Part shown: positions 18,251-50,843 of the stretch, piece by piece
How positions within the stretch are numbered: the first letter of the stretch is position 1
Layout of the letters: every line of letters begins with the position of its first letter
From: a virus
IMG/VR virus record: IMGVR_UViG_3300029429_000001
Coordinates: 1-64,000 of that record
Direction: 5' to 3' (one strand)
DNA length: 64,000 nt
Made by a program: the position numbers and the translations under genes
Notes under the pieces: model-generated
The model's database searches: none
What the model was told of the DNA's origin: nothing
The model's input: the letters and a program-made list of their open reading frames with translations, nothing else

Positions 18251-18282
18251 AATCAAACCTCCGTTAAAAGTGAGATGCACGG

Positions 18283-18336
18283 CTATAATCACCCTCCAGG
18301 GTGAAACTGTCAACTACTTTTCACCCTCCAGGGTGA
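18283..18336 (-). promoter_or_regulatory. Sigma70 promoter with two identical palindromic operators TCACCCTCCAGGGTGA
   Basis: Copies at 18289-18304 and 18321-18336 flank TTGACA; TTGACA-17-GATTAT. Confidence 0.75.
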
Positions 18337-18343
18337 TTTTATC

Positions 18344-18568
18344 TTGATTAACCATAAGCGACCTTATAAGCTCCTGGGCATACCACAAAAAAAGATAATG
18401 ATAATGCGCAAAGAAATTTTGCTTTACTCGCTGGTGGCTATACAGGCACGCCTAGGCTCGCTTGAGCACTCTTTAGAGGGGAGATCCGCCAGCGAATTTG
18501 AAACACTGCAGCTGGCGAAATTAAAAAAGGCTGAGGAAATACTCATTGCCGATATGAAACAAGCTTAA
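18344..18568 (+). CDS. Small hypothetical protein (divergent)
   Basis: Helical ORF filling the gap; start uncertain. Confidence 0.4.
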   Translation: MINHKRPYKLLGIPQKKIMIMRKEILLYSLVAIQARLGSLEHSLEGRSASEFETLQLAKLKKAEEILIADMKQA

Positions 18569-18870
18569 GCAAACTGGTATATATAATTAAGAACCCAGCC
18601 AACTATTACACCTAGCCAGAATTGCGCCTGGCTGGGTTTTCTACGCTCCATTGGGGGCGCTTCCTCTTCAGGTTCATCCTCCTCCAGCTCATCAATGGGC
18701 AAGATAAGATCCACCGCCTTTTTACAGGTCCAGTCGCTACAGTTTCCCGTCACGATCGGCTCGGCCAATTCAACCCCCTCCAGGGCCGCCAGGTTTACCC
18801 GGTTTAACTTATTACAGTAAGGGCATGCCCACTGCCCACGCTCAGATACTTTTGTCTGCTTCCTAATCAC
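18565..18870 (-). CDS. Zn-ribbon protein with C-terminal TM helix
   Basis: CPYC, CSDWTC; hydrophobic C-terminus. Confidence 0.55.
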   Translation of the reverse strand: MIRKQTKVSERGQWACPYCNKLNRVNLAALEGVELAEPIVTGNCSDWTCKKAVDLILPIDELEEDEPEEEAPPMERRKPSQAQFWLGVIVGWVLNYIYQFA

Positions 18871-19076
18871 CCGTGATTCCCCTTATAGATTTTTATTAGC
18901 TCTTCAGGCATATCCCCTAAGGTCTCCCACTGCCCCTCATCGGTTAAGTAGGTGCCTTCCCTCATATTGATCAAGGTCACAGGGTCCTGCTCCTTTACAA
19001 TGCTATCCACGATAGCCTGGGGCAAAACCGAGGACCTGAAAAACTCCTGGTCCTCAGTGATAATCAAATAACTCAT
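18867..19076 (-). CDS. Hypothetical protein
   Basis: Coupled ORF. Confidence 0.5.
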   Translation of the reverse strand: MSYLIITEDQEFFRSSVLPQAIVDSIVKEQDPVTLINMREGTYLTDEGQWETLGDMPEELIKIYKGNHG

Positions 19077-19297
19077 GAAATTGTTCGCTCCTGTAATCTA
19101 TCCAAAAACGCAGCAAGAGCGACGTAATTTCTTTTACGCTTGCTTTGTATAATGTCGCAGGTAAAGGTCCCGCTTTTCCCTTCCTCCATGAGCGCCAGGC
19201 GATCAGTTGTCCTGCTTAGTCTGTCCGTATCATAGTAAACAGGAAATAAGAAAGCCGGCTTAAGTCTGCCGGCTCCTGCCTTGCGGTTAAAAGTCAT
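19073..19297 (-). CDS. Hypothetical protein
   Basis: Coupled ORF. Confidence 0.45.
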   Translation of the reverse strand: MTFNRKAGAGRLKPAFLFPVYYDTDRLSRTTDRLALMEEGKSGTFTCDIIQSKRKRNYVALAAFLDRLQERTIS

Positions 19298-19301
19298 TTA
19301 G

Positions 19302-19838
19302 TTAAGCCGCCAGCAAGTCGGATTTAGTATATTTATGGCCGAAGTAATGAACGCCCTGGTAGCTATACCAGGCACGGAATTTCCACATGCCTTTCTCTAT
19401 ACAGATCTGCTGCATAGCTCTATCAAAATCGTTTTTACAGTTGCGGGGGAGTATTCCCATACGCATTAGCTGATAGCCCAGATCATGAAATAAGGACCCG
19501 TCCATCCATGTTTTTGTGTGGAAAACCGGACCGCTCGGACCGTCCCACGCATAGCCAGGCTCAATGACCACCAAGATATGGCCAGCATCCAGAACGTATA
19601 CAGTGAAATACTTATTCGCGATCAGTAAGCCCTCAGGCATGCCGGTCTTAATCTTCAGTGTGCGAACCCGTGTTTCCTCTACCACATAGCCAAAATCACT
19701 TAGGCGCCTTTTTTTGTAATACAGAGATGAATCATTAGCCGCCTCGATGTATGGCCGGGGTATATCGAGCGGCGCCTCCCTTAAACTTGCTATTTTAAGC
19801 GCTAGCGCCGAGTCATCGTTATTTTTACGTTTGAGCAC
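19302..19838 (-). CDS. DUF1353-like phage protein
   Basis: PGYAWDGPS, SLFHDLGYQ, YQGVHYFG motifs. Confidence 0.65.
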   Translation of the reverse strand: MLKRKNNDDSALALKIASLREAPLDIPRPYIEAANDSSLYYKKRRLSDFGYVVEETRVRTLKIKTGMPEGLLIANKYFTVYVLDAGHILVVIEPGYAWDGPSGPVFHTKTWMDGSLFHDLGYQLMRMGILPRNCKNDFDRAMQQICIEKGMWKFRAWYSYQGVHYFGHKYTKSDLLAA

Positions 19839-19925
19839 CGTTATGCCCTCCAGTAATAATCCGCCAGCACGGCGGAAAAGAAATTGCCTTGCGGCAAGAT
19901 TAAACGCACAAGTGCGTAATTGAAA

Positions 19926-20408
19926 TTAATCTAATTCGGGGGTTTGGAATACGTCCAGGGATTTCCTATGAGCCATCAGCCATTCGGCGCCCATACGATC
20001 TTTAATGTGTTTCAGGATGGCCGATAGCGCTGGCGGCTCCACGTCGGGTATTTCATGCTCAATGCCTACCATCGCACCACGGGCCTTGATTGCCTGGTTA
20101 TACGCCACCCAGTAACCTAAGCGACGTATAGGGAACGCCTTACTATCACGCTCGTTATTCGCATAGTCGGCACGCTGAGCCATAAAGGAATATTGCGCCG
20201 CTCGCTTTGCATCCGGTTTGCGGATAAACAGAATTATTCCAGAAAAGCCGGTCACGGTAACATCACGGCCTACCAGGATAGGAGGTAAAGGGATCTGGAC
20301 ACCACCTACCGTCACACCGTTAACATTGTTAGTCCGGGCAACCGCTTTGCAGAGATCCACATAAAAATTAGACAGCGAGGATTCGCGTCTTACTACAGAG
20401 TTTGTCAT
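19926..20408 (-). CDS. Hypothetical protein
   Basis: GGAG RBS and hairpin motif before ATG 20408. Confidence 0.55.
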   Translation of the reverse strand: MTNSVVRRESSLSNFYVDLCKAVARTNNVNGVTVGGVQIPLPPILVGRDVTVTGFSGIILFIRKPDAKRAAQYSFMAQRADYANNERDSKAFPIRRLGYWVAYNQAIKARGAMVGIEHEIPDVEPPALSAILKHIKDRMGAEWLMAHRKSLDVFQTPELD

Positions 20409-20475
20409 CTTATTTACTCCAGGGCCGTTAATCCCCGTACTACAGTTAAGTGCGCATTCTAGCACTATTAATAAA

Positions 20476-20727
20476 TCAGCCCGCTTTCAATCTACTAGCC
20501 GCTATAAACTCATTGGCCGGTATTCCTGCCCCGTGCACATTGGCGGGCAGCTGGGGCCGTATACGCTCAAGCCTAAGTGTGAACTGCCCCCTGCAACCCA
20601 CGCACTGGAACGTAAGACATATCCGCTTCATACGGACCAATACATTACATTCCTGGCAGTAAGGCCGATAAGTCTCATCGCCTTTAATTCTAGCCGCCAG
20701 CTGCTCGCGTAAATCAGGATTATTCAC
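20476..20727 (-). CDS. Small Zn-ribbon protein
   Basis: CQEC...CVGC. Confidence 0.5.
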   Translation of the reverse strand: MNNPDLREQLAARIKGDETYRPYCQECNVLVRMKRICLTFQCVGCRGQFTLRLERIRPQLPANVHGAGIPANEFIAASRLKAG

Positions 20728-20902
20728 CCTCTACCGCCACACCATAACTATTATCAGGATGCACATAGTTAAAAGGTTTCTCGCAGGCTTCACATTGGCT
20801 CTCATGTTTTCCCCCGTCATCAAGAACATGATCTACCGAATTGATATCACCACAATCCGGGCACGCTGCCTCGATCACTGTATAGGACAATACTGTTTTC
20901 AC
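20720..20902 (-). CDS. Small Zn-ribbon protein
   Basis: CPDC...CEAC; GGAG RBS. Confidence 0.55.
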   Translation of the reverse strand: MKTVLSYTVIEAACPDCGDINSVDHVLDDGGKHESQCEACEKPFNYVHPDNSYGVAVEGE

Positions 20903-21124
20903 TACTTACTCCAGGCCCCGTTAAGGCCGTTTAATGCTCTTGATTAGTCCATGCGTTTGTTGATTAGTCCACGACGCAGGATTTCTAAATTTAATATTTG
21001 AAGATCTCAATAATCACAGTTCCCAGCAAAGCCAGTAGTGCGATACCTCCAATCGATAACGGGCCGCCCGAATCCTTCACATATCTAATTGCTGGCGGCT
21101 CAGGTGGCTCAGGTATATGGGCCA

Positions 21125-21403
21125 TTATTCCATGCCCTCGGCTGCCATGTTAGCAGCGAGCTCATTAACAGACTTGTTCAAGGCCTCTATATGCTCCTTA
21201 CCGGTACCTGCATGCTCTGCCATGACCAATGCCGTATGAATACGCACGTTTAGGTCTAAGAGGTGCTGGCGGTACTTAGAGCGGTACTTACTCTCAGCTG
21301 AATCCTTCACCATTTTAGCGGTAGCCAGGGTCGCTGCCAATGCAGAGAATATAACCAGGACCCAAACACCCAGCACGGGACCAAAAAACTCAATGATGAG
21401 CAT
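21125..21403 (-). CDS. Membrane-anchored hypothetical protein
   Basis: N-terminal TM; probable start MLIIEFF. Confidence 0.5.
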   Translation of the reverse strand: MLIIEFFGPVLGVWVLVIFSALAATLATAKMVKDSAESKYRSKYRQHLLDLNVRIHTALVMAEHAGTGKEHIEALNKSVNELAANMAAEGME

Positions 21404-21599
21404 TTTTAAGATCCTCTCTAATTTGCTTGGCCAATAGCTCAAGCATTTCAGGAAGCTCAGCCGTGCGCTCAGGGCTTGCCTGGCAACTAAACCCGCTCCC
21501 ATGTATGCCATCGATCACAACTATCACCGCGCCGGCCGCATTGGTTGCCTCGCGTAACACTGTGCACGCATCGTCGTATTTACCTTTACCTTCAGCCAT
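21390..21599 (-). CDS. Conserved phage hypothetical protein
   Basis: GKYDD.CT..RE...A..VIV.V..G..GSGFS.Q motif. Confidence 0.6.
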   Translation of the reverse strand: MAEGKGKYDDACTVLREATNAAGAVIVVIDGIHGSGFSCQASPERTAELPEMLELLAKQIREDLKNAHH

Positions 21600-22000
21600 T
21601 AGCTAGTCACCTCAATTGCCCTTCTCTTAAGCAGAAAATCATTAAACGCCATCCGGTTTAATAGATTCGCTTCATAGCACCAGCCCACCACCTCAGATAC
21701 AACCTTATCGGCCGCGCCCTGGTAGCGGGCTTTAACAAAGTATTCCCCATCATAATAACCAGGTACCAACATACCCAAGTGGGTCATCATAAGAACAGGA
21801 TCACCCACCGATGGCTTGCCCTGCTCGGGATTTCTAAAGCAACTAAGGTTTAATCCGCACTCTCTTTGTTCCTGAGATATAAGCCTTAGCTTTCGGGCTT
21901 GCTCCCTAATTCTTGAGGAGAAATACAGCGATATAAATACCATGATAAGGACCAAAATATTCACTGCCAGGCTAGCCCATTGGTTAAATTCTAATTCCAT
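21599..22000 (-). CDS. Membrane-anchored hypothetical protein
   Basis: N-terminal TM. Confidence 0.5.
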   Translation of the reverse strand: MELEFNQWASLAVNILVLIMVFISLYFSSRIREQARKLRLISQEQRECGLNLSCFRNPEQGKPSVGDPVLMMTHLGMLVPGYYDGEYFVKARYQGAADKVVSEVVGWCYEANLLNRMAFNDFLLKRRAIEVTS

Positions 22001-22587
22001 TACTTATCACGCCTTAAACCATTCGCAGTTAAATAGGTTTCCAGATCCGCCAGCTGCTCATCGGTACCCACAAGAAAACCCGCCTTATCATAGCCAGCTA
22101 CCCTGGATACAAACTCCAGCAACGGACCGCTCTTGCAAAGTGCCCCCGGTACCTGCTCACTCATACCCAACAGGAAGTAAGCAAACGCACCGACCTCCTG
22201 AGGGCCTATGAACGCAAGCACGCCATTAATACTTAGATAACGGCAGTCAGCATCGCTGGCGGATGCCCTAAGGCTAAACAAAAGCTCCAGGGCAATAGTA
22301 AGCGGCTCGCCCACCTGGCCATTAGAATCAGAAATCGTTTTACCTGCCTTATAGGATTTTTCGGCAAACATGATCACGCTTAATGCGTGCATGATATCCG
22401 GCAGGCTTGTGTCTGCCAGGTGCGGCCAGCCCTTAAACTTATCGTGCATTACAACCGCCAGCACATCACTAAAACCACCGGGGCTCAGGTCATCATAGCG
22501 CGTGAAAAAACCCTTATTTTCTAGGGTATTTCTGATTTTAGTGGCCATATCCAATGGTGTAGCCTCACTCATTTTTAGATCTCTCAA
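22000..22587 (-). CDS. Hypothetical protein
   Basis: 195 aa coupled ORF. Confidence 0.55.
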   Translation of the reverse strand: MRDLKMSEATPLDMATKIRNTLENKGFFTRYDDLSPGGFSDVLAVVMHDKFKGWPHLADTSLPDIMHALSVIMFAEKSYKAGKTISDSNGQVGEPLTIALELLFSLRASASDADCRYLSINGVLAFIGPQEVGAFAYFLLGMSEQVPGALCKSGPLLEFVSRVAGYDKAGFLVGTDEQLADLETYLTANGLRRDK

Positions 22588-22751
22588 TTCGTATGTGGTT
22601 AATGCGCAAACCCATCAAGGCAGCACCAAAAATAAACAAAGCAACACAGCCCATAACCTCGAACCATTCACATTCACCCCATCGGATAGACCCGGCCCAT
22701 ACAGCCAGCCCCATCAACATCACCGCGCAAATAAGGTCCTGCCTAATAGCA

Positions 22752-23123
22752 CTATTCAATTTCTGCTTTCTCCAATCTCGCCAGCTCTCTAATCTGCATT
22801 TCTTTTTGTACGCGGCGCATTGCGATTTCTTCATCAGTAAACAGGGCGCCAAGGATCTCGCCGCCATCTATATGGCCTTTACCGTAGGCCTCGAATATTG
22901 AAAGGTCGATCGATAACGTGCCTATACGGTACCCGGCGTAAACGCAGAAAAGGAGAAATACACCTATGGCCAGTTGAACCACAAGATCGGCTGTAACCCC
23001 AAGCCCGGCATCGATACTGGCCATCATAAGCGCGCCATTCCAGCCTATCTGCCCCCCAGCCAGAAACAAGCTAACGATCATTAGCGAGCAAGAGTTCCAC
23101 AGAGAAAATTTAACTTTATTCAT
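22752..23123 (-). CDS. Membrane protein
   Basis: Two TM segments; GGAG RBS. Confidence 0.55.
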   Translation of the reverse strand: MNKVKFSLWNSCSLMIVSLFLAGGQIGWNGALMMASIDAGLGVTADLVVQLAIGVFLLFCVYAGYRIGTLSIDLSIFEAYGKGHIDGGEILGALFTDEEIAMRRVQKEMQIRELARLEKAEIE

Positions 23124-23437
23124 TACTCCTCCCTTGGCGGATGATTAAATATAGGAACGTCGGATATCTCAGGTCCCTTCCAGGGCTCACTAGCAGCGTA
23201 ATCAATCTTATCCGCTACTTTGACCAAGGCAGTAAGTCGCGCAGTGTGCACCTCATCATTGTCAGTATCTTCAGAATAAAACATGAGCATAACCTCTTTT
23301 CTAATCTGCTTAAGCTCATCAAGCCGCTTTGCCTGGTACTGATCAGCAAGCATGGCGCTATTGCGATTAACAACCCATACCGACACAACAGCAACGACTA
23401 CCCATGCAATCATCTGCACTATAAATTGCGCTTCCAT
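23123..23437 (-). CDS. Membrane-anchored hypothetical protein
   Basis: N-terminal TM; GGAG RBS. Confidence 0.55.
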   Translation of the reverse strand: MEAQFIVQMIAWVVVAVVSVWVVNRNSAMLADQYQAKRLDELKQIRKEVMLMFYSEDTDNDEVHTARLTALVKVADKIDYAASEPWKGPEISDVPIFNHPPREE

Positions 23438-23577
23438 AACCTAACTCCCAACCTTTTTAACTGCAGAAACTATTAATTTATTCACCAACTCAAAAGCTTC
23501 TTTATGAATTGGTTCCCTGGCATTCCACAGCAAAGCCGCCAGCTCTGGTGGCTGCTCTTCGTGATATTCAAATAAAT

Positions 23578-24216
23578 CTACCATTGGCCTACATCCACTC
23601 CGATCACGTTATCCATATAGGCTTCTTCGACTTTTTCCTGGGTAATACCTATGTATTCCAGGGTTTCCGAAGGTGCACTATGATTAAAAAGTTTTTGCAG
23701 GGTATGAATATCAATCCCGCCATTATATGCGTTATACCCGAAGGTCTTACGCATGCTGTGAGTCGAGAAACGATAAGGAAGGTCCAGGCGCTCCCGCACT
23801 TCCCTAAATAATTTGCCCACATAAGAGGCACTAATAGGACCCTTCTTAGCGGCCGTTAAGTTACTCACTCCCTCAAACAAAAAAACCGCTTCCGGGTTTA
23901 AATTTTTCAGGCGATCAAGGGCCTCCATGGCCCCGGTGTTAAGTACCAGGCGCTTATGCTTTTTGGTTTTGATTTCTTTTATTTCAACGTAACCAATGCG
24001 CTTGCCTTTTACTTCGACCTCTCGGATATCGCCAAACGTAAGCCTTAATAAGTCACTGATTCTTAACGCGCAATTACAGCCGATCAAGAACAGCTCAGCA
24101 TCCCTAAACCGCCCCATACCTCGAAGCTTGTTATAGATCATCTTGAGGTCAATAAGATCTTTAACGGGGGAGGCTTTACCTCCTCGCTGCCGGACGGTAT
24201 CGGTCATCCTAATCAC
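23578..24216 (-). CDS. Tyrosine recombinase/resolvase (catalytic domain only)
   Basis: ALRISDLL (R), KEIKTKK (K), HSMRKT (HxxR), LFNHS..TLEYIG (H, Y). Confidence 0.9.
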   Translation of the reverse strand: MIRMTDTVRQRGGKASPVKDLIDLKMIYNKLRGMGRFRDAELFLIGCNCALRISDLLRLTFGDIREVEVKGKRIGYVEIKEIKTKKHKRLVLNTGAMEALDRLKNLNPEAVFLFEGVSNLTAAKKGPISASYVGKLFREVRERLDLPYRFSTHSMRKTFGYNAYNGGIDIHTLQKLFNHSAPSETLEYIGITQEKVEEAYMDNVIGVDVGQW

Positions 24217-24613: not shown

Positions 24614-24661
24614 AATAAACCCTATTTTTATAGACTAAAACGCATTACCGGAAGCGGCTAT

Positions 24662-24946
24662 TTACTTGTAATTGGCCTTGGCCACTTCAGTTAATAGGTC
24701 GAGATAATCGCGAGTCAGAGTGTCGCATTCAATCTGGGCAGCGATCACAGCTTTAAAGGATTTTTGCATCTTGGCTTTATTGTTGCCCTCGAAAAAACCG
24801 CAACTGGAAATAGAGAAGGCGTACTTAGCGTATTTGGAGCCGGAGTTTTTGTAGCGCTTAACTGTAGCGAATACAACCGAGTGGCCTGCATGGTTCTTGG
24901 CCAATTTCATAGCCGAGGAAGCTTGAGTGTTTATTGATCTGTTCAT
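24662..24946 (-). CDS. Hypothetical protein
   Basis: ORF; may extend to an ATG near 24972 if an A5 run is A6. Confidence 0.55.
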   Translation of the reverse strand: MNRSINTQASSAMKLAKNHAGHSVVFATVKRYKNSGSKYAKYAFSISSCGFFEGNNKAKMQKSFKAVIAAQIECDTLTRDYLDLLTEVAKANYK

Positions 24947-25059
24947 TTTTGCGTCATCTTATAAGTTTTCATAATCCGGCCCCGTTAATGGCGTTTTATG
25001 AAAAATGAGTGATATGGAACAAAAGGAATCCTACTCCTTAAATGCCAGCTTTACAAGGG

Positions 25060-25127
25060 TTTTAAGGACTAGGAGGTTAGAACGGGTATGATTTCCAGTA
25101 AACATGGGGCCTCCCTAGTCCTTAAAA
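25060..25127. repeat. 14-bp inverted repeat TTTTAAGGACTAGG...CCTAGTCCTTAAAA
   Basis: Seen directly, upstream of the resolvase operon. Confidence 0.7.
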
Positions 25128-31691: not shown

Positions 31692-31868
31692 ACTGAGGCA
31701 TGCACAAGGTGCACATAATTACTGAATTGCAGGCATGAAAAAGGCCGCACTAAGCGACCTTTTTTAATGAAATACTGTAACTGTCTCCCCCTGGGTTAAC
31801 GGCCCTAGGGAGAATCAAGTGTGAACTGGAGCGCGATAATCGATGACTAGAACCGCAAGAGAACAAAC

Positions 31869-32171
31869 ATGACCCATAACCGAATGTTACGGCAGCCCAG
31901 CAATGGTACCCAGCATGGTCCACAAGATCAAACCCGCCACATCAATAACGCATATCTAATTGCCTACATGGCAAAGTTAAACTTCACTGCTGAGCGCATG
32001 GCCGATATCGCGATGTGTTCCCAAAGCTCAATAGAAGGCTATCGATCGAGTCCAGGCACTAGCCGGTACCAGGTACTAAAAAATAAGAACCTGGTCTTTA
32101 TCGATACCATGATCATAGCTGGCAGATTCGCTACCAAAGAACGCCTGGCAGAAATTAAGGCCGGCGCATGA
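31869..32171 (+). CDS. HTH transcriptional regulator
   Basis: FTAERMADIAMCSQSSIEGYRS HTH-like. Confidence 0.6.
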   Translation: MTHNRMLRQPSNGTQHGPQDQTRHINNAYLIAYMAKLNFTAERMADIAMCSQSSIEGYRSSPGTSRYQVLKNKNLVFIDTMIIAGRFATKERLAEIKAGA

Positions 32172-34168: not shown

Positions 34169-34239
34169 TCTTCGATCTCATGTGGTGATACCAAAAAACC
34201 GCAATAAAGCGGTTTAGTGTTTTACATTAACGGTATGCG

Positions 34240-34476
34240 TTAGCCTTGAAAGTCTTGAATATAGGACCGGTACCACTTGCGACAAATAGCCTCAAAGTCG
34301 GCTTGAATGTCACCAGCATAAGATAACGTGCTGCCCATAGTTCCGCCGCCGCTGCATATTTGCTTGCCTAGCGTGCCTGGAGCGCCGTTTAGATCGGCGT
34401 ATATATATTCGCTTCCAGGGCGGGAAAACGTGATTTTCTTATCAAGTTTTTTGCTGGAAATAATTAGATCATCCAT
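34240..34476 (-). CDS. Conserved small phage protein
   Basis: GTLGKQICSGGG.MGSTL..FEA.CRKWYR motif. Confidence 0.6.
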   Translation of the reverse strand: MDDLIISSKKLDKKITFSRPGSEYIYADLNGAPGTLGKQICSGGGTMGSTLSYAGDIQADFEAICRKWYRSYIQDFQG

Positions 34477-35903: not shown

Positions 35904-36350
35904 TTACTTGCGTTTGGCAGCTATAGATTGGCATCGCTTGCAGTAACCATCACCGCCTTGGGGTTCTATGTCGGCCCCCGTCTCCTTGAAGCTTGGCAAT
36001 GAAACGCCGCACAGAGTTACCTCATCACAATCGTATTCCATGATATGCGACTTAGAAAAATTGATTGGGCGACTGTTTTCATCAAAGAAATTCCAGCCAA
36101 CGCTACAAAAATCAGGCTTATCAATTTTTTCAACTTCGGGCGCAGAGTCGAAAACAGGATCATTAGTCACCTTCATTTCTTCTAAAAGCCACCCAGGCAG
36201 GTTAGGCGTCTGTTCATTGGGAGTAATACTGATAACGGTCTTGTCATCGTTTTCCAAGTAGCCAGTTAATTGGCCCTGGTCTAAAACCGTTGCTGTGTAA
36301 GTGTGGTCAGTGTACTTAATATCCACATACAAATTAGGCGTGCTATTCAT
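35904..36350 (-). CDS. Acidic protein with C-terminal Zn finger
   Basis: Start MNSTPNL with GGAG RBS; H..LCG..CKRC. Confidence 0.6.
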   Translation of the reverse strand: MNSTPNLYVDIKYTDHTYTATVLDQGQLTGYLENDDKTVISITPNEQTPNLPGWLLEEMKVTNDPVFDSAPEVEKIDKPDFCSVGWNFFDENSRPINFSKSHIMEYDCDEVTLCGVSLPSFKETGADIEPQGGDGYCKRCQSIAAKRK

Positions 36351-36399
36351 CGTTTTTGCTCCATTAGTGCCAGGGCCGTTAACCCTGTCCATGGATCTA

Positions 36400-36461
36400 A
36401 ATATACGCGGTATTTGCATATTTACAAGCTTTTCATGATATTTATGTGCATATGCTGCACA
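36400..36461 (-). promoter_or_regulatory. Promoter TTGTAA-16-TATATT with operator TGTGCA-N5-TGCACA (36445-36461)
   Basis: Perfect operator copy downstream of a terminator. Confidence 0.7.
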
Positions 36462-36623
36462 CACACACTTTAGCCAGGCACAAAAAAGGGCCTCCAAAGA
36501 GACCCTATAAAAAATAGAAGGTATAAAAAATAGAGGGTATAACCGACAAGCCCTCCCCTTCACAATTTGGGCAGCCGTACCGGTCCCCCTCGTTATCATG
36601 CTCGTAGTCACAGAATGGGCAGA

Positions 36624-37840: not shown

Positions 37841-38065
37841 CTACCACTCGGTAGGCTGGGAAACGGCCCGCGTCATCCAACTAAGGCCTTGCTGCAGATT
37901 AGTTTTGGCCAGGCTAACTGCGCCCTGGTCGAGACCGCTAAGACTTTCCAGCATCTCAATATGAGCCTTTAATGATTTCCCCAGTTCTTTACCTGAGTTC
38001 ATTAGATCTATTTGTTTTTGACTAAGATCACCATAGCCACTTATTTGCTTATGCTGGTTATCCAT
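37841..38065 (-). CDS. acb2: Acb2-family anti-CBASS cyclic-nucleotide sponge
   Basis: MDNQHKQISGYGDLSQKQIDLMN..KELG and AKTNLQQG..RAVSQP closely match Acb2 ([23 protein letters not shown]..KELG). Confidence 0.85.
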   Translation of the reverse strand: MDNQHKQISGYGDLSQKQIDLMNSGKELGKSLKAHIEMLESLSGLDQGAVSLAKTNLQQGLSWMTRAVSQPTEW

Positions 38066-38554
38066 TGTCACTCCAAAAAAAAGGCCCTAAGGCCATTTAA
38101 TTATGTATTTGGTTGGCCTTCTCTTTCACCACTGGCGAAGGCCTCACCAGCTAAGACTGCCATCCAAATAACAGCCCTAATTAGTACTGCCCATACAGGC
38201 AGCTAGAAATACCGCGGCTAGGTCATTTTTAAGGGAACAAATAAAACCCAACGTGAATGCCCACACGCTCTAACGAGGCCCAATTGTAGGAAAGCCTCTA
38301 TAACAAGAATTCTTTAAAATTCGTTACCGGTTACGCTGTCCGGACACTGGCAATGGCAGAGTATAAAAATACCCTCAAATCCAACCAGTCGATTTATCAG
38401 GCTAATAACTTGCCCTTACTCACAGCCTTTTTAAGGACCGCTACAGGACTTCCCCCGTGGCCAACATTTTATTTTCATAACACTAAACATCAGTACAATT
38501 GAGTTTAAGTTATTGCCAGTTAGTGACTGGCAGCACATACCTACAAGGGTATTC

Positions 38555-40354: not shown

Positions 40355-40358
40355 TTTG

Positions 40359-43001: not shown

Positions 43002-43037
43002 TTACTGAGCCTCAAAATAGATAACGGTATAAGTACC

Positions 43038-43535: not shown

Positions 43536-43564
43536 GCCTTAAACCTCATTGGTCGATTTGAGAA

Positions 43565-43593
43565 GCATACCGGAAGTGTGCATGTGTTGCACA
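43565..43593 (-). promoter_or_regulatory. Operator TGTGCA-N5-TGCACA (43577-43593) overlapping early promoter
   Basis: Perfect palindrome; -10 TATGCT downstream on minus strand. Confidence 0.7.
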
Positions 43594-44408: not shown

Positions 44409-44560
44409 ACTATCAATAAGTTGATAGTGGCACTACACCCGCTCGAAGGGGGACTATCAAAAAGTTGATAACGCCACTACGAAACCTCGATACGGGACTA
44501 TCAATAAGTTGATAGTCCCGAGCTAATATATTAACCTGCCATTATCAGTTAATTGATAAT
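44409..44560. repeat. Four 20-bp palindromes ACTATCAATAAGTTGATAGT at exact 44-bp spacing
   Basis: 44409, 44453, 44497, 44541 (last degenerate); upstream of RepL-type gene. Confidence 0.8.
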
Positions 44561-44572
44561 GAGACGCTTAAT

Positions 44573-45130: not shown

Positions 45131-45172
45131 CTGCATGTGGCGGGCTTATTAGGCCGTAACCCGCCCTGCATT

Positions 45173-45220
45173 CCTACCGCAAAACATCCAGCCCCAAAGC
45201 ATTCCTACCGCAAAACATCC
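45173..45220. repeat. Two further perfect iterons
   Basis: CCTACCGCAAAACATCC at 45173 and 45204. Confidence 0.85.
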
Positions 45221-45269
45221 AGGGCATAATCGCCAGGCAAAAAAATAGAGGCTTAAAGCCTCTTATTTA

Positions 45270-46403
45270 CTACGCGAACTGTATCTCATCGGTTTCTGGC
45301 TCCATGGCCTTATCTGGCTTAGGTAACTTGCCTGGACTCCATTTCTTGGCTTTCTTCATTTCCTTAAGCCCCCTGGCATCGTCTAGCCAGTGTTTCGTCT
45401 TAACCCTGCCTGTAAAGTCTTTATGAGCCCATACAGTGACGATTCGATCTTCTATCTTGGTGCGACCGCCTAGGCCACTAACCTTAGCCGTTTTATTTTC
45501 GATATTGTATGCGCGGATAACATTGTTTTTCTTAAGGTCCTCCAGGGCCATTTTCAACTTACCCCAACTCTTGCTCGGGTTTTTTTCATAAAACCCAATA
45601 CAGCTGTTTTCAAGATATTTCCTGGCCGCAAAATTGTATTGAGTTTTATGGCCGGCCTGGCGGAATTTATAACTTAGGGTCTTTATCAGGTCTATTGCTA
45701 GATCTTCATTGAGCTTGCCCTGCAGCTCAATGTCATGAGCACAGTAATCACCTAGTGCAATGTCGCGAGCAAACGCCCAGTGAAATTCGCAATAACTTTT
45801 TGATTCCCGATCAGCCCTGTACATTTGTGCTGTGATCAGAGTTAGGTTGCTAATGCGCGTATTAACATTGGAGTGCGTAGCAGCATCAGAATTTTGAGCC
45901 ATCATAGGCAGGTCAATCGAGCTTCTAGCCAGTGTGTTTAGGGACTCTCGGATCTGCGCTACAGAATATTTCGTATCGAATATGTCCATAATCACGGTCC
46001 TAATTCCCTGGAGCGTAAAGGTAACGCCGATCTGGAGTTTATCCTTTTTCGGTACTGCGGCGCCTTGAGATGCCAGGTAGGCCAGAGCATCCTCCACCCT
46101 ATCCTCTCGTATGCTGGGGTTGCGGATTACATCTGATTTAACGGAGACGCCATTAACCATCTTTGTAATAGGTATTATCGCCGCACTCACACTGTATTCA
46201 ATAGGACCATCAGGGCCCTTAAATTCACGGTATTGAATATGATTGCCATTGGCACGGCGAAAAACGCGCTTAGTTAACTGGCTATACATGCCCGTTATAT
46301 TGGTCAGGCTATCTGCTTTTTCTTCAGCCAGCCCTAGGTTGGTGAAAATATTTAGCTGGCGCTCAAAATCATCAACCACAACTGGCAGATTATTACCCGG
46401 CAT
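45270..46403 (-). CDS. Plasmid replication initiator (RepA-like)
   Basis: PSIREDRVEDAL..LA, GVTFTL, YS..QIRESL..L motifs; adjacent to iterons. Confidence 0.75.
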   Translation of the reverse strand: MPGNNLPVVVDDFERQLNIFTNLGLAEEKADSLTNITGMYSQLTKRVFRRANGNHIQYREFKGPDGPIEYSVSAAIIPITKMVNGVSVKSDVIRNPSIREDRVEDALAYLASQGAAVPKKDKLQIGVTFTLQGIRTVIMDIFDTKYSVAQIRESLNTLARSSIDLPMMAQNSDAATHSNVNTRISNLTLITAQMYRADRESKSYCEFHWAFARDIALGDYCAHDIELQGKLNEDLAIDLIKTLSYKFRQAGHKTQYNFAARKYLENSCIGFYEKNPSKSWGKLKMALEDLKKNNVIRAYNIENKTAKVSGLGGRTKIEDRIVTVWAHKDFTGRVKTKHWLDDARGLKEMKKAKKWSPGKLPKPDKAMEPETDEIQFA

Positions 46404-46962
46404 CCTTAAACTCCTTTATTGATTCTGGTGGCGCCAATAGGCAAGTGGTTTCAAGTACAGAGAAGCCGGCCATGCGCAGCATCTTTTCCCATAGAAGGAA
46501 TTGAATACCTGGACCATGATTTTTAAAATAGTTATAGAAGACACGACGGCGAAAACCAGTTTTTAAAGCAAGTTGAATAACTGGGATTTCTTCTCCTTCC
46601 GGAGTCAAAAGCATTTCTTTAAGCGCTCTTACTTGGTGGCCGGTAGGTGGCGCCCAAACAGATCCAGACTCCATAAGAGTCGTATCCGGATTACACCAGA
46701 TAGAAAAACGTCGTTGCTTGTTTTTTTCACGGAAATAAAGAGGGGTATTTTTAACTTCCCCCTGGATATTCAATAGAGCGTCGGGCACTTCAGGGTGATT
46801 CGACTTAACGATTAAACGGCAGGGATCGATTTCTGAAGAGGCTAGCGCATATCGTAAATAGCGCTTTTCGGCTTTTACAGGGTCACTTGTTTCAACGAGA
46901 GCGTGTTTTACTCCTGGTGACTCAAGGTATTCTTTGTATATTTCTATGTTGTTGTTATTCAA
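46393..46962 (-). CDS. Regulator with KorC-like C-terminal HTH
   Basis: W.PPTG.QVR.L...LA..TG..RR.F..Y...I.F..W..L...AG resembles IncP KorC. Confidence 0.6.
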   Translation of the reverse strand: MNNNNIEIYKEYLESPGVKHALVETSDPVKAEKRYLRYALASSEIDPCRLIVKSNHPEVPDALLNIQGEVKNTPLYFREKNKQRRFSIWCNPDTTLMESGSVWAPPTGHQVRALKEMLLTPEGEEIPVIQLALKTGFRRRVFYNYFKNHGPGIQFLLWEKMLRMAGFSVLETTCLLAPPESIKEFKDAG

Positions 46963-46998
46963 TGTCTAAACTCCGGCATGAGTTTTATAGCGGTTTGC

Positions 46999-47027
46999 AG
47001 GGTACTCTATGTGCAACAGGTGCACAA
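46999..47027 (-). promoter_or_regulatory. Promoter TTGTGC-17-TACCCT with operator TGTGCA-N5-TGCACA (47010-47026)
   Basis: Perfect palindrome upstream of the regulator-rep operon. Confidence 0.7.
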
Positions 47028-47049
47028 TAAAGCCCCTTAATTAACAGCC

Positions 47050-47589
47050 CTAATCTAGGACCATCTCCTTGTCTGATGGCGGCTCACCATCTAATCCATC
47101 TATCGCTTGATCCACTTTCTCTTTATCACAATGAGACAATTGCTCTTTCACAGAGTGCATTTGCTTGTTGTTTATATAGAGAGAGTCGAAAGTTTTGTTT
47201 CTTTTATTGATCAAGTGCTTTTGAAGAAACACCAGGGCAATTGTTCTTAGGTCCTCTCGCTCTTCCAGGTCAGGGAAAAATTTATTCCTCGATATGGACA
47301 GATAGGCCCGTGATGGGCTGTTTTCTTCTCGCTTAGCCGATTCACCATCAACCGTAACCCATAGGCGATTATTACGTTTTTTTAGAAATCTATGTATCAG
47401 CTGGCGAGCGTAAGAGTGGTTAGGCTGATTTTTACGATTCAAAATACCGTAACTAACAGCCAAGTCTTTAACCGACACTTCAGTATGATGAAGGTATATG
47501 TAGGACATTATCTTGCTTGTATCTTCATCGTAAGATCGATTCACACGATTCCTATTTTCGTCTATTGAATTAATTACATCGTCACTCAT
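47050..47589 (-). CDS. Hypothetical DNA-binding protein
   Basis: Basic, HTH-like VSVKDLA; GGAG RBS. Confidence 0.55.
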   Translation of the reverse strand: MSDDVINSIDENRNRVNRSYDEDTSKIMSYIYLHHTEVSVKDLAVSYGILNRKNQPNHSYARQLIHRFLKKRNNRLWVTVDGESAKREENSPSRAYLSISRNKFFPDLEEREDLRTIALVFLQKHLINKRNKTFDSLYINNKQMHSVKEQLSHCDKEKVDQAIDGLDGEPPSDKEMVLD

Positions 47590-47618
47590 TAAACTTTGCT
47601 CCAGGGCCCGTTAAGCCC

Positions 47619-48155
47619 TTAACTTCCCATCGCCAGTGCCAGGTATCCGACCCGGACGCGGTGAGTCTTACAATACTGGGCAAATTCCTTAACAACCCCT
47701 CTAAATCTACCTCCGGCATGCTCGGAGTGATCCAAGTACTTCCTGCTTTTTATCCCACAATATGTACAAAGCCAGTCCCGGGAATAAGCTTCCCAGCGTC
47801 GAGATAGTGGCAATTTAGAATGAACGGCAAAGCTTTCGCCCTGCTCAATATCAACCCCTTTGGCCCCTGCCTTAGCTTGTAAAAACTGATGAAACGCGGC
47901 ATCTCTACACATTTGACCTGCTGTAGCGGTATAAGCACCACCAACAACATCGCCGTCATAATTAGCCAGCATCAAGCTCGCCTCTATGATCATTTTTCGA
48001 GAGTCTTTAGCATCGCCTAACATTTTGGCCGTCTCTTCAGTCACCTGAAACGATGCCCGGTAAGTTATGCCGTTAGCGTTGCTTACCGATATTTTTGGTC
48101 GGTAAAGGGCGACGGTAATGGGGCTGCCAATGCTATCTAGCGGGTTTGCGCTCAT
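47619..48155 (-). CDS. Conserved phage hypothetical protein
   Basis: MCRD..F..FL, CGIKSRK.LD motif. Confidence 0.6.
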   Translation of the reverse strand: MSANPLDSIGSPITVALYRPKISVSNANGITYRASFQVTEETAKMLGDAKDSRKMIIEASLMLANYDGDVVGGAYTATAGQMCRDAAFHQFLQAKAGAKGVDIEQGESFAVHSKLPLSRRWEAYSRDWLCTYCGIKSRKYLDHSEHAGGRFRGVVKEFAQYCKTHRVRVGYLALAMGS

Positions 48156-48213
48156 ACGTTTACATTACTCGCTTTTGAGTGTGCATTCATTACACACCTC
48201 ATTGTGTGAATGT

Positions 48214-48519
48214 TCAAGCTTTAACCGTCAATATCTCATCTGAGATGCCATCTAATACAGCCTGGCCCAGGTCGGTTATACGGTACTTCTTTGCTACCCG
48301 GCCCCTACCGCCTACAGGTGGCGTGCCGGTCTCTAAAATTTCCTCAAACTTTAACAGCCTTTTAAAAGCGTCGTCGCGAGATTCCCTACTCATACCTGCA
48401 TTAGATAGCCGCTTTGTTATTGCCGATAGATTACACTCGGCATCCATTAACATGTACAGAATGTTAAAATCTACTTTGTTTACAGGCTTTTTTGGATTTC
48501 GCTTTGCTTTAGAAACCAA
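48214..48519 (-). CDS. Winged-helix regulator (divergent from rec operon)
   Basis: GRGRVAKKYRITDLG wing motif. Confidence 0.65.
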   Translation of the reverse strand: MVSKAKRNPKKPVNKVDFNILYMLMDAECNLSAITKRLSNAGMSRESRDDAFKRLLKFEEILETGTPPVGGRGRVAKKYRITDLGQAVLDGISDEILTVKA

Positions 48520-48710
48520 TTTCCGCCCCCTTATACTGGTGAGTGAAAAGCAAGGTAGTTGCTTTTCCTGGCGGCAATTCTACCAGAAAGAAATAAGAAA
48601 GAAATAAGAAAGAAACAAGAAAAAACACAGGATTAATACTTGATATGCGTGCGACCCTAGATTAGGATTCGCATATTCGGATTAACGGACGAATAACAAA
48701 ATAGGACAAA

Positions 48711-49874
48711 ATGATGACTATTGAATACCCCCAGGCCTCAATCTCTGAGGTGTGCACCAGGTTCACAGATCTTGGCATTGAGATTAAACCCGCTTACCGC
48801 TTTGCCGGTGGCCGCCCTCTTCCCAATTGGCTTAACAATGAAGGCCGCGCAATTCCAGGTATTTACTACGGCCTACCTAATGACTCCTATCACAAGATTG
48901 AAGGCCTGAGCTCATCAATGCTCAAGACGTTCGTGCTGGATTCAGAGGCGCACTATGATGCCAAGTACAACAAGCCAGATATCTATCATCTAAACCAGGA
49001 TGAAAAGCGCCCGGACCATTTCACGGCAGGTGATCTTATTCACGCCCTTATTCTGGAGCCCTGGAGCGTCTTAAAACGCTATTACCGTGATCACACTAAA
49101 TCAGAATTCCCTGGTGCCCTGGTTACTGACCCGCAAATAAAAGCAGCATTAAAGGAGGCCGGCGAACCACAAACAATAGGCGGCGAGAAAAAAGCCGATC
49201 GCATTGCACGCCTAATGGATATCAATCCAGATACGGTTGTATGGGATTGGGAGCTGCAAAAGCTGGCGGATGCCAACGAGGGTAAAACCGCTATTAAGGG
49301 CGGTATATGGGATTGCGCCCACCTGGCTTACAAAGCATTCCTGGAACGCCAGGAGGCTACCGATTGGATCGATCACGCTAATGGCCTGTCTGAGCTATCC
49401 ATAATCGCAGAGTGCCCACACACAGGCATGATAGTGCGCTGCCGTCCTGACTTTACTCTTTTGCTACCGGTCATGGATAACCTCAGGTATCCGCCTTTAA
49501 TGGTTGACGTTAAGAGTGCCAACTCAGCTAGCCCGGAAAAATTCGCACGCTCCATTGGCGATTTTGGCTATCACCTGCAGCAGGCTTTTTATGAATACGT
49601 TTTTAAGCTGGCCACTGGTACCGCTCCTTTTGATTTTGGTTTTGTGGTGGCTGAATTTGAAAAGGCCTCGATTGTCGAGACCATAAAAATAGACAAGGCC
49701 ACCATGAAACTTACCAGGGCCAGTCTTATTCCTGCGCTTAAAAAATTAAAGCACTGCTACGACGTTAATCAATGGGCAGGCTATACATCCGGAGGCGTAA
49801 CAGAATTAAGCGTCGCACCATGGGCATTAAAACGCTTACCGGTAGATATGACTGAGCTAGAGGCCGTGGCATGA
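48711..49874 (+). CDS. RecE/ExoVIII-like PD-(D/E)XK exonuclease
   Basis: PGIY..ND.YH...SSS.LK, RCRPD, VDVKS, YHLQQAFY. Confidence 0.88.
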   Translation: MMTIEYPQASISEVCTRFTDLGIEIKPAYRFAGGRPLPNWLNNEGRAIPGIYYGLPNDSYHKIEGLSSSMLKTFVLDSEAHYDAKYNKPDIYHLNQDEKRPDHFTAGDLIHALILEPWSVLKRYYRDHTKSEFPGALVTDPQIKAALKEAGEPQTIGGEKKADRIARLMDINPDTVVWDWELQKLADANEGKTAIKGGIWDCAHLAYKAFLERQEATDWIDHANGLSELSIIAECPHTGMIVRCRPDFTLLLPVMDNLRYPPLMVDVKSANSASPEKFARSIGDFGYHLQQAFYEYVFKLATGTAPFDFGFVVAEFEKASIVETIKIDKATMKLTRASLIPALKKLKHCYDVNQWAGYTSGGVTELSVAPWALKRLPVDMTELEAVA

Positions 49875-50830
49875 GTTATATGCAGCCGGCCGTCATAACC
49901 AAGGAAGTAGCTGAGCAAAACATACTTACTTCATTTCAGACGATCGATAATGCCAAGGGACAATTTGAGCTGGTGGCTAATGCTTATGGCCAAATGGCTT
50001 TTGCTCATGAAGCTGAATTCGCCAAGCAAATAATCCAGCGCTCTTATACTGGGGTACCCAACAAAGACAAGTTTTCACTTGTTTGTTGTACCCAGCAAAG
50101 CATCTATAACGCCGTTGCCCAGGTAGCGGATCTGGGTTTAAGCCTAAACCCAAAACTGGACCACGCTTATCTATTGCCCAGGCGTAACACTCACACTGGC
50201 GACCTGGAGTGCACCCTGGAGCCGTCTTATAAAGGTTTGATCCACCTGGCAATAGAAGGCGGCGCCATTAGCCATGTGACCGCCACCGTCGTTAACAAGG
50301 CGGATGTAGACAGCGGGGCGTTTGTATATAACGGCCCCAGTGCTGAGGCTGTTTTTAAAGGTATTGATCCATTCAATCCGCCCACTGAAGCCGGTATTTA
50401 TGGCGCCATCTGTACGGCTCACCTTATCGGCGGGGGAGTGATCACCACCATCATGAATAGGGCCGACATTAACCAGGCCCGAGAAGGCGCAAACAATAGT
50501 AAAGCTTGGAAAATTTGGTTTTCAGAGATGGCCATTAAATCCTGCATACGCCGGGCATCAAAGTTATGGCCAAAGCCTACCAGGGACACTCGCTTTATTG
50601 GCGCCATCGATGCCCTCAATAAATTAGATAATGCTGAGCACTTCCAAACGGCCGCTAATGAGCCGGTAATTATGCAAGACGTGACCACGCCAGCCATCGC
50701 CAGCACAAGTGATACAGCCCAGGACCGGCCGGCAGTAATGAACCTTGAGGACCTAACCAAGCGCCTAGCTCAAAATAAAAGAAACAGAGCAAACCCTGAA
50801 AAAACTATTTACGTGAACACTGCAATTTAA
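49871..50830 (+). CDS. recT: RecT single-strand annealing protein
   Basis: LGLSLNP..HAYLLPR, SYKGL, EMAIKS.IRRASKLWP. Confidence 0.9.
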   Translation: MSYMQPAVITKEVAEQNILTSFQTIDNAKGQFELVANAYGQMAFAHEAEFAKQIIQRSYTGVPNKDKFSLVCCTQQSIYNAVAQVADLGLSLNPKLDHAYLLPRRNTHTGDLECTLEPSYKGLIHLAIEGGAISHVTATVVNKADVDSGAFVYNGPSAEAVFKGIDPFNPPTEAGIYGAICTAHLIGGGVITTIMNRADINQAREGANNSKAWKIWFSEMAIKSCIRRASKLWPKPTRDTRFIGAIDALNKLDNAEHFQTAANEPVIMQDVTTPAIASTSDTAQDRPAVMNLEDLTKRLAQNKRNRANPEKTIYVNTAI

Positions 50831-50843
50831 CGGAGCGCAGACG

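Follow-up and report, generated by a model that had tools for sequence, protein, structure and literature searches.

A family of short hairpins with an invariant UUAACGG loop beside the ribosome-binding sites of dispersed genes in an apparent distant P1-type phage

The stretch of viral DNA considered here (the window) comprises the first 64 kb of a 93,964-bp IMG/VR record (IMGVR_UViG_3300029429_000001) that is classed as linear, with a CheckV completeness of 95%, and its gene content includes a tail sheath, a portal, a PacB-type large terminase (TerL), RecE/RecT-like proteins, SSB and RepL, together with a DarB-like protein of 2,292 amino acids (aa) that is coded at its right end. Because the portal and DarB proteins display only 31-33% identity to those of P1 and D6, the source is assigned, on the strength of its sequence, to a distant P1-type myophage, and it is probably a phage-plasmid; no nucleotide-level relative was found in phage or plasmid collections. 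The subject of this analysis is the heptamer TTAACGG, which recurs in the 5' leaders of genes scattered across the window and is usually presented there as the loop of a short hairpin. An earlier examination of the letters (the sequence-only reading) had listed nine such sites, and all nine of them carry the heptamer in a 5' leader, on the strand of the downstream gene. Eight form a family, with five firm and three probable members, that is defined by an invariant loop, covarying stems, a position next to the Shine-Dalgarno sequence, an orientation in the sense of the message, and an absence from late-gene leaders.

The hairpins and the genes behind them are listed below, with scores from a covariance model of their alignment (termed R1) and the energies of the isolated folds. 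Five copies (20425, 20918, 31796, 36376 and 47608) are strong and G+C-rich, with energies of -5.9 to -10.7 kcal/mol, and three (18261, 24982 and 48682) are weak.

20420..20437, minus strand: copy 20425, strong; CGGGG-A-UUAACGG-CCCUG; R1 27.4 bits; -5.9 kcal/mol; the final stem G doubles as the first G of GGAG, with ATG 8 nt on
19926-20408, minus strand: gene behind copy 20425, a 160-aa orphan
20914..20928, minus strand: copy 20918, strong; GGCC-UUAACGG-GGCC; R1 34.1 bits, the best hit; -6.7 kcal/mol; UGGAG directly next, GTG 6 nt further
20720-20902, minus strand: gene behind copy 20918, a 60-aa CxxC...CxxC zinc ribbon
36371..36387, minus strand: copy 36376, strong; CAGGG-UUAACGG-CCCUG; R1 29.3 bits; -7.9 kcal/mol; GGAG 9 nt downstream, then ATG 8 nt later
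35904-36350, minus strand: gene behind copy 36376, a 148-aa orphan
47603..47619, minus strand: copy 47608, strong; AGGGC-UUAACGG-GCCCU; R1 30.8 bits; -8.3 kcal/mol; its first A completes the TAA stop of the preceding gene (47619-48155), and GGAG adjoins the 3' arm, with ATG 9 nt further on
47050-47589, minus strand: gene behind copy 47608, a 179-aa orphan
31789..31810, plus strand: copy 31796, strong; CCCUGGG-UUAACGG(C)-CCUAGGG; R1 26.1 bits; -10.7 kcal/mol; GGGAG lies within or adjoins the 3' arm, followed by a GTG-TGA start-stop pair and a 9-codon upstream open reading frame (uORF)
18256..18272, minus strand: copy 18261, weak; CACUU-UUAACGG-AGGUU; R1 24.7 bits; -0.9 kcal/mol; the ribosome-binding site GGAGG is formed by the last two loop bases and the 3' arm, with ATG 7 nt later
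18020-18250, minus strand: gene behind copy 18261, 76 aa
24966..25004, minus strand: copy 24982, weak; inner stem GCC/GGC (3 bp); R1 25.7 bits; -2.6 kcal/mol; the inner stem tops a 9-bp outer stem, UUUUCAUAA/UUAUGAAAA (region z = -2.33), that buries the AUG of a 9-codon uORF
48674..48695, plus strand: copy 48682, weak and A+U-rich; UAUUCG-GA-UUAACGG-A-CGAAUA with a 10-nt loop; R1 26.8 bits; -3.6 kcal/mol; it begins at about +1 of a predicted promoter, and AGGA and ATG come next
48711-49874, plus strand: gene behind copy 48682, a RecE-like exonuclease
50827..50833, plus strand: a heptamer that is not a member; no stem, the TAA stop of a RecT-like gene (49871-50830) followed by GGAG

The short hairpin that had been proposed for these sites is thus present at five strong and three weak copies and is lacking at 50827, where R1 also gives no hit. 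The particular stems that had been quoted can all be found: CAGGG/CCCTG at 36376, AGGGC/GCCCT at 47608, GGCC/GGCC at 20918, ACTT/AGGT (which includes one G.U pair) at 18261, and TATTCG/CGAATA at 48682. Minimum-energy folds add two U.G pairs to the stem and leave an AAC triloop.

The evidence that carries this family comes from a comparison of the copies with one another. In an ungapped alignment of all eight, the seven loop columns are the sole invariant columns, while 72.5% of the stem cells are paired, as opposed to 48.3 +/- 6.4% when the letters of the 3' side are shuffled, a level that none of 500 shuffles reached; the covariation score is 0.61 against 0.23. Each of the five stem pairs has changed on both sides with its pairing maintained, and RNAalifold concurs. 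Pairing falls to 55-58% when the 3' partner is shifted by one column in either direction, and copies 20425, 48682 and 24982 pair one base out of register, so that the true percentage must be higher. R1 recovers all eight copies at 24.7-34.1 bits, and its only additional hit in the genome, at 82470, lies antisense within a late structural gene and looks like chance. The constant loop and covarying stems described by the sequence-only reading are therefore upheld by pairing, model and positional statistics alike. The flanks of the copies are unrelated and carry no sign of recent copying, so they are not obviously recent duplicates, and the combination of an invariant loop with covarying stems indicates selection upon a structure plus a loop sequence, rather than upon the sequence of duplex DNA. 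Because that combination is found in sense leaders, it points to a recognition site and not to a conserved stretch of DNA.

TTAACGG occurs 21 times in the window, where shuffled sequences contain 8.16 +/- 2.93 copies (none of 100 shuffles reached 21, the maximum being 15), and 35 times in the full genome; seven of those 35 lie in sense leaders, defined as the 45 nt or less before a same-strand start in an automatic gene set, where 0.95 would be expected (binomial P = 3.7e-5). That gene set omits copies 20918 and 31796, both of which are also leader copies. The enrichment over chance upon which the sequence-only reading had staked its proposal is thus present. Every hairpin copy has the sense orientation, at a distance from the start codon of no more than 45 nt or, in one case, of no more than about 70 nt; since most of the copies that lack a hairpin are found inside genes, part of the overall excess is probably due to codon usage. 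The word CCTGGAG provides a measure of that effect: it is found 34 times where 6.9 are expected, through CTG-GAG codons, which indicates that dinucleotide shuffles understate chance for such words. An octamer, CCCTGGAG, that was considered as a DNA half-site was rejected on the same ground, the enrichment of CCTGGAG being attributable to codon usage. A census of leader hairpins that took no account of loop sequence (a hairpin of at least 4 bp with at least three G-C pairs, followed by a Shine-Dalgarno sequence, a start, and an open reading frame (ORF) of at least 40 codons) returned 36 sites in the genome, among which TTAACG/TAACGG was the sole loop hexamer to recur three or more times; in the same census of P1 and D6, no loop word reached three. 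There are seven occurrences of the late-promoter word AACACACWTT, all of them ahead of structural operons on the minus strand, and no hairpin copy lies in a leader behind this word, as the sequence-only reading had observed of late genes. The description of the hairpin-led genes as 'early', which that reading also applied, is retained here in a qualified sense, as it is drawn solely from sigma-70-like promoters and from the absence of the late motif.

Within their leaders, the hairpins end 0-9 nt before the Shine-Dalgarno sequence. In copies 20425, 20918, 47608 and 31796 the 3' arm lies 0-1 nt from GGAG or shares one G with it, and with the addition of copy 18261 these form the five in which GGAG abuts or overlaps the 3' arm, in agreement with the claim that several copies do so; in copies 36376 and 48682 the Shine-Dalgarno sequence lies 8-9 nt downstream. 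A sigma-70-like -10 element ends 13-39 nt before the loop in six copies, with the transcription starts being predicted ones.

18285..18313, minus strand: promoter of copy 18261, TTGACA-17-GATTAT, 17 nt before the loop
36400..36427, minus strand: promoter of copy 36376, TTGTAA-16-TATATT, 17 nt before the loop
48640..48668, plus strand: promoter of copy 48682, TTGATA-17-TAGGAT, 13 nt before the loop
25028..25056, minus strand: promoter of copy 24982, TTGTAA-17-TAGGAT, 39 nt before the loop; read from the sequence and absent from the promoter-scan list
20456..20464, minus strand: extended -10 of copy 20425, TGcTAGAAT, 24 nt before the loop; read from the sequence
plus strand, ahead of copy 31796: extended -10 of that copy, TGaAATACT
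24943..24972, minus strand: uORF of nine codons, MKTYKMTQK, starting 9 nt after the loop of copy 24982
31819-31824, plus strand: GTG-TGA start-stop pair, after the GGGAG of copy 31796 and ahead of the following uORF
31843..31872, plus strand: uORF of nine codons, MTRTAREQT, behind copy 31796

Copy 47608 occupies a 29-nt gap between two genes and has no evident promoter, which suggests a position between two genes of one operon and an element that is not bound to the 5' end of a transcript. A sigma-54 promoter at TGGCAC, considered for copies 47608 and 36376, was rejected as a result of a misfit in the -12 element, and an N4-type hairpin promoter was likewise rejected, the large ORF at the right end encoding a DarB-like methylase-helicase and the phage being P1-like. 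The two uORFs are built alike, in that each ends in a TGA that shares bases with the ATG of a main gene, which for MKTYKMTQK codes for 94 aa and for MTRTAREQT codes for 100 aa and has its ATG at 31869; this ATGA arrangement suggests translational coupling, and the pair, each behind a hairpin, looks like a leader-peptide coupling design.

The sequences upstream of the hairpins differ from copy to copy. Two exact copies of an operator-like palindrome, TCACCCTGGAGGGTGA (18289-18304 and 18321-18336), bracket the -35 element of the copy-18261 promoter, one overlapping it and the other lying upstream, and the second gene of that operon (17806-18036) codes for a 76-aa Cro/C1-type helix-turn-helix protein; the sites are probably an autoregulated operator pair, and a third type of operator in this phage. 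Upstream of copy 36376 lie a TGTGCA-N5-TGCACA palindrome (36445-36461), which recurs at 43577, 47010 and 54540, and a terminator (36487-36506). Just upstream of copy 20918 is a direct repeat, TGGACTAATCAA (20940-20951 and 20960-20971, minus strand, with starts 20 nt apart), that might serve as a binding site or else represent two weak extended -10 elements. A purine-only repeat tract of AAGAAAGAAAT-like units (about 48588-48630, plus strand) immediately precedes the promoter of the RecE/RecT-like operon; near it, on the opposite strand, an extended -10 element (TGgTAGAAT, about 48575-48583) faces what is likely a helix-turn-helix gene, about 85 aa in length (about 48214-48470, minus strand), which is more plausible there than the listed 142-aa plus-strand ORF. 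In the neighbourhood of copy 24982, a long hairpin with perfect 13-bp arms (AAGGACTAGGGAGG...CCTCCTAGTCCTT; 25064-25123, minus strand) sits in an A+T-rich, 1.1-kb non-coding gap that extends from the TerL gene to the promoter of that copy. Downstream of the 160-aa gene led by copy 20425, and of two terminator-like hairpins, a gene resembling tail-fibre-assembly chaperones (19302-19838, minus strand; phrog_1158, E = 1.6e-13) is found among small orphan genes, at a distance from the tail-fibre gene at 9690-12170.

The arrangement of these parts suggests an RNA-level function and a factor that acts in trans. The retention of an invariant loop upon stems that have been turned over completely implies that the loop is read in a sequence-specific manner, while the strict sense orientation and the fixed place on the Shine-Dalgarno side imply that it is read in RNA and bears upon ribosome loading; the diversity of the promoters and operators upstream further suggests that the hairpin represents a common layer over separate transcriptional controls. 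Among the functions that the sequence-only reading had offered, translation control through a loop-specific trans-acting factor fits best, as the hairpin abuts the Shine-Dalgarno sequence, and boxB-like antitermination fits poorly on the grounds of loop type, boxA and placement. The interpretation that is tentatively favoured here, at a confidence that falls a little short of even, is that the hairpins constitute a shared RNA operator that controls the access of ribosomes, its loop being recognised by a single protein or a single antisense RNA. A stem of 4-7 bp and of arbitrary sequence would present the UUAACGG loop, and a single factor, either an RNA-binding protein (of the phage or of its host) or an antisense RNA containing CCGUUAA, would recognise it; once bound, that factor would block or promote ribosome loading, the hairpin being inside the region that the 30S subunit must occupy, and might thereby set translation and mRNA lifetime jointly for the whole set of genes. 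At copies 24982 and 31796, the first sequence to be translated would be the 9-codon uORF, with the main gene coupled to it through ATGA.

The nature of the loop is consistent with recognition by another RNA. Kissing complexes usually take the format of a 7-nt loop on a 5-bp stem. The first four loop positions, UUAA, conform in all eight copies to YUNR (a permissive 4-nt motif, and for that reason weak evidence), and no conserved partner for the loop, in cis or as a pseudoknot, was found within 150 nt on either side of the copies. Recognition loops in antisense systems form their U-turns through motifs of the YUNR kind (PMC4485353). The only free-standing, non-coding anti-loop sequence CCGUUAA lies at 34227-34233, within 34190..34252 on the minus strand, separated by 7 nt from a preceding stop codon and by 11 nt from the intrinsic terminator that follows; a weak internal promoter lies nearby at 34258-34285, and the heptamer is partly paired in the predicted fold. 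The segment could be an antisense RNA derived from a 3' untranslated region, and is considered as a lead only. With respect to protein readers, the C-terminal half of a 238-aa protein (16759-17475, minus strand) in the copy-18261 operon matches the ProQ C-terminal-like family PF24203 at 20 bits, where the cut-off is 27, and protein-atlas hits agree with that assignment at scores below 0.9; the protein is a possible RNA-binding protein and a weak lead, as is the generic 60-aa zinc ribbon behind copy 20918.

The eight proteins encoded behind the hairpins display no similarity to one another, and the idea that paralogous genes each brought their own leader was accordingly rejected. Apart from the RecE-like exonuclease, none of the eight matches a Pfam or PHROG family. 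In a separate part of the minus strand, a 76-aa protein (37841-38071) contains an Acb2/Tad1 hairpin domain (PF24729, E = 2.8e-12) and, from that match, is likely a sponge for cyclic-nucleotide signals, and hence an anti-CBASS or anti-Thoeris protein.

Several observations weigh against the operator interpretation. In their local context, the copies are no more stable than shuffled sequence (z = -0.2 to -1.0, with copy 24982 the exception), and the case therefore depends upon the comparison of copies and their position, and not upon energy. The covariation evidence is drawn from eight copies within one genome, three of which are weak, and the copies were initially gathered by the exact loop word; a search that allowed one mismatch in the loop nevertheless produced a single extra leader candidate, ATAACGG at 19838, which indicates that the exact-word collection hides no cloud of variants. 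A covariance search across relatives, which had been put forward as a means of checking the element, gave it no support, in that R1 finds nothing in P1 or D6, and leader hairpins with a TTAACGG loop are likewise absent from 141 loci of TerL relatives. Almost all of the early proteins lack a family and no protein reader was identified among them; about one free CCGUUAA is expected by chance in the 7.9 kb of non-coding DNA; and no C4-type RNA was found in the 94-kb genome by a search that does find the one in P1.

Searches of other genomes and databases lead to the same picture: the element appears not to have been described before, and this phage is the only source in which it has been seen so far. 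Among TerL homologues, the nearest are metagenomic and 62-64% identical; the closest of these that could be read, at 64%, has no such hairpins in 13.5 kb of contig, and homologues of the small hairpin-led genes are absent from all 141 loci. R1 displays no enrichment in 156 gammaproteobacterial genomes, and the idea of a host regulon was rejected. IMG/VR contains no close relatives of TerL, the RecE-like gene or three of the hairpin-led genes, and a pattern scan of that database for TTAACGG-N0-2-CCTGGAG gave single matches at chance level only. A short blastn search against phage records gave no match, a literature search for the heptamer returned primers only, and Rfam release 15, at gathering thresholds and at E<=1, yielded a tRNA-Gly and two irrelevant weak hits in the window and nothing in the remaining 30 kb of the genome.

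Two observations in other genomes are recorded here in their own right. An unrelated 60-kb phage contig (L250, G001:C1:10879-10912, IMG/VR 3300025277_000021) carries a perfect 9-bp hairpin, CTCCAGGGC-TTAACG-GCCCTGGAG, between a stop codon that it directly follows and an ATG 7 nt further on, that shares its loop core, 3' arm and ribosome-binding site with copies 20425 and 47608; as a single copy on its contig it is not significant, and may be a coincidence. Ten P1-like plasmids or contigs, among which are named Pantoea and Enterobacter records, share a conserved non-coding element of about 165 nt (L011:6729-6901, minus strand; L010:25-194; L003:2949-3118; L004:5694-5869; also L002, L048 and L084-L087). 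It adjoins tRNA genes and, in L011, the only locus checked in this respect, STnc100-like RNAs as well. The stems of its first hairpin covary, and the loop that they close reads CUUACGG, CUUACGA or UUAACGG (or the complements of these, if the other strand is functional). No Rfam family matches the element, and this phage lacks it. It accounts for the TTAACGG- and CTTACGG-loop hairpins of L010, L011 and other loci, which had been considered as relatives of the family described here and were rejected because they form the first stem of this unrelated element.

Among alternatives to a shared operator, one that is unlikely and yet substantial is a leader module that acts only in cis, stabilising the mRNA and/or keeping the ribosome-binding site clear of upstream structure, with a loop that is the same in each copy through copying. 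A stem-loop near the 5' end of a message hinders RNase E and RppH, and the distances from the -10 elements would place six of the eight hairpins near the 5' ends of their transcripts, in each case immediately 5' of the Shine-Dalgarno sequence. A purely structural role, however, leaves an invariant 7-nt loop amid full turnover of the stems unexplained, and copying is not evident in the flanks; in addition, copy 47608 lies inside an operon without a promoter of its own, and the predicted 5' single-stranded tails of 4-12 nt (from starts that are themselves predicted) are long for protection of a 5' end.

Leader hairpins that act as operators are of a known kind, while a dispersed, multi-operon set with a fixed loop is unusual in a P1-type phage, and the shared operator can be compared to several established systems. 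The thrS operator of E. coli has the proportions of an anticodon arm, which the hairpin described here, with a 5-bp stem, a 7-nt loop, U at loop position 2 and a purine at position 6, resembles. Both that operator and the gene 43 operator of phages T4 and RB69 consist of a short hairpin just upstream of or overlapping the ribosome-binding site, with a protein that reads the loop, as is proposed here; they differ in being single-copy and autogenous, the enzyme repressing its own mRNA, whereas five to eight copies precede unrelated genes in this phage. No DNA polymerase or synthetase was found among the early proteins scanned, a scan that stops short of the late third of the genome. The gene 43 operator establishes that a hairpin on the side of the ribosome-binding site can serve in translational control, and its loop contains UAAC, as does UUAACGG (PMC3014915). 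The P1 immI system is from the same phage lineage, and there pairing of the C4 RNA, through loop sequences, with sites (the a1b1/a2b2 targets) at the icd ribosome-binding site blocks translation; C4 serves its own operon only, in contrast to the eight dispersed leaders in this genome. The YUNR start of the UUAACGG loop would suit RNA-RNA recognition of that type (PMC4485353). The Rfam models for C4 (RF01695) and c4-a1b1 (RF03163), which as a positive control score 68.8 and 51 bits in P1, have no hit in the 94-kb genome.

The systems that act upon many messages provide a further comparison. Iron-responsive elements (IRE) of eukaryotes, which are bound by IRP, and the GGA-loop sites of bacterial CsrA are found in many mRNAs, with a constant loop, a stem that need only pair, and one factor in control, and with them the present family shares the logic of a constant-loop hairpin in the 5' leader or at the ribosome-binding site. 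Unlike an IRE, it has no CAGUGN loop and is confined to one phage genome. CsrA/RsmA sites are defined by GGA in the loop of a hairpin; in the five strong copies the loop is followed by C or G, and ACGGA occurs only at the weak copies 18261 and 48682 and at 50827. A more ambitious form of the operator interpretation, and a rather improbable one, is that the hairpins form an IRE-like regulon, in which one loop-specific factor switches the translation of dispersed operons through an anticodon-arm-shaped hairpin at the ribosome-binding site. A novel RNA-binding protein of the phage might play the part of that factor, as might an antisense RNA that forms a kissing complex or a tRNA-binding enzyme that has been recruited from the host as a sensor; the action of the factor would form a layer over at least three different transcriptional operator systems.

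Somewhat less probable again is the reading of the hairpins as processing sites, recognised by an endoribonuclease specific to them that would resemble Cas6/Csy4 or, less closely, T4 RegB with its action on GGAG; cleavage at the stem base or within the adjoining GGAG would silence messages or separate cistrons. A constant loop on a short G+C stem would suit such an enzyme, as would the GGAG that adjoins the 3' arm in five copies with A-rich spacers next to it. RegB cuts GGAG in the ribosome-binding sites of T4 early genes, yet it requires no hairpin and structure protects from it (PMC3014915). Its consensus, GGAGRAYARAA, is matched only loosely, in that GGAG is followed here by UAAAUAA, UAAGUAG, CAAAGUU, CAAAAAC or AAUCAAG, which are A-rich only; moreover, the Shine-Dalgarno sequences of copies 36376 and 48682 lie 8-9 nt from the stem, and family scans of the early proteins found no nuclease family, RegB-like or other.

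It is quite unlikely that the element operates as DNA, as a hairpin or cruciform read by a recombinase, a transposase or another DNA-binding protein, and serves as a cassette-border mark or a promoter-proximal operator. Most of the hairpin-led genes are orphans, and a tyrosine recombinase gene (23578-24216) lies in the same region, but neighbouring genes without hairpins are orphans too, and the recombinase is kept beside the TerL gene in relatives that lack the motif. The hairpin is always oriented with the downstream gene and keeps a fixed place against the Shine-Dalgarno sequence, and there is no reason for a DNA site to do the latter. Integron attC sites are imperfect palindromes of 57-141 bp with RYYYAAC...GTTRRRY cores, and repetitive extragenic palindromic (REP) elements have a conserved stem and a GTAG flank; the hairpins in this genome are 15-22 nt in length, far shorter than attC, with variable stems and no such cores or flanks. 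The promoter-early stem-loop (PeSL) cassettes of T4-type phages, which combine a sigma-70-type promoter and a stem-loop between orphan genes of variable regions, in many copies per genome, offer a likeness, and can mediate shuffling (PMC2839356, PMC4122927). A PeSL is a composite terminator and promoter with a conserved stem (G(n)-loop-C(n) and others), however, whereas in this family the loop is conserved and the stems covary, which is the opposite of PeSLs (PMC4122927) and also of REP elements; the hairpin also follows its promoter, lies against the Shine-Dalgarno sequence and has no U-tract.

Very little probability is assigned to a boxB-like nut site, at which an N-type antiterminator would bind the nascent hairpin and render the polymerase resistant to terminators in early operons. 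The likeness to lambda boxB consists of a G+C-rich 5-bp stem and a constant loop, soon after early promoters and in several operons. The lambda element, in contrast, has a pentaloop (GAAAA or GACAA) with a GNRA-like fold, an associated boxA, and two copies per phage upstream of terminators, features that are not evident here: the loop is 7 nt long; no GCTCTT(T)A-like boxA was noted in the 170 nt upstream of any copy, by eye and not by a pattern scan; copy 31796 lies downstream rather than upstream of a terminator-like hairpin; copy 47608 occupies a 29-nt intra-operon gap; and copies 20918 and 20425, 490 nt apart, would be redundant. An arginine-rich N-terminus was not noticed in the eight hairpin-led proteins, although the search was not a rigorous one, and no N-like protein was recognised in the family scans of early proteins, N-type proteins being short and hard to detect. 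Chance combined with codon and ribosome-binding-site context (TAA stops by GGAG, and frequent AAC-GGN codons) accounts for 50827 and possibly for 18261, and is scarcely credible for the family as a whole, being in effect refuted for the five strong copies, as it cannot give five G+C-rich complementary arm pairs round one heptamer, all in sense leaders.

Control in P1-type phage-plasmids is thought to be mainly transcriptional, through C1 operators and Lpa late promoters, with the addition of one antisense RNA that acts on one operon. A fixed-loop hairpin before five to eight unrelated genes would add to this a genome-wide post-transcriptional layer. If that interpretation is true, the hairpin would represent a very small and portable RNA tag (15-22 nt) which, together with its reader, could be of use as a tool and could lead to a new RNA-binding factor. 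Almost all of the genes led by these hairpins are of unknown function. Anti-defence (Acb2/Tad1-like) and recombination genes occur in the same regions, and a shared control signal would be a first clue that the hairpin-led genes act simultaneously.

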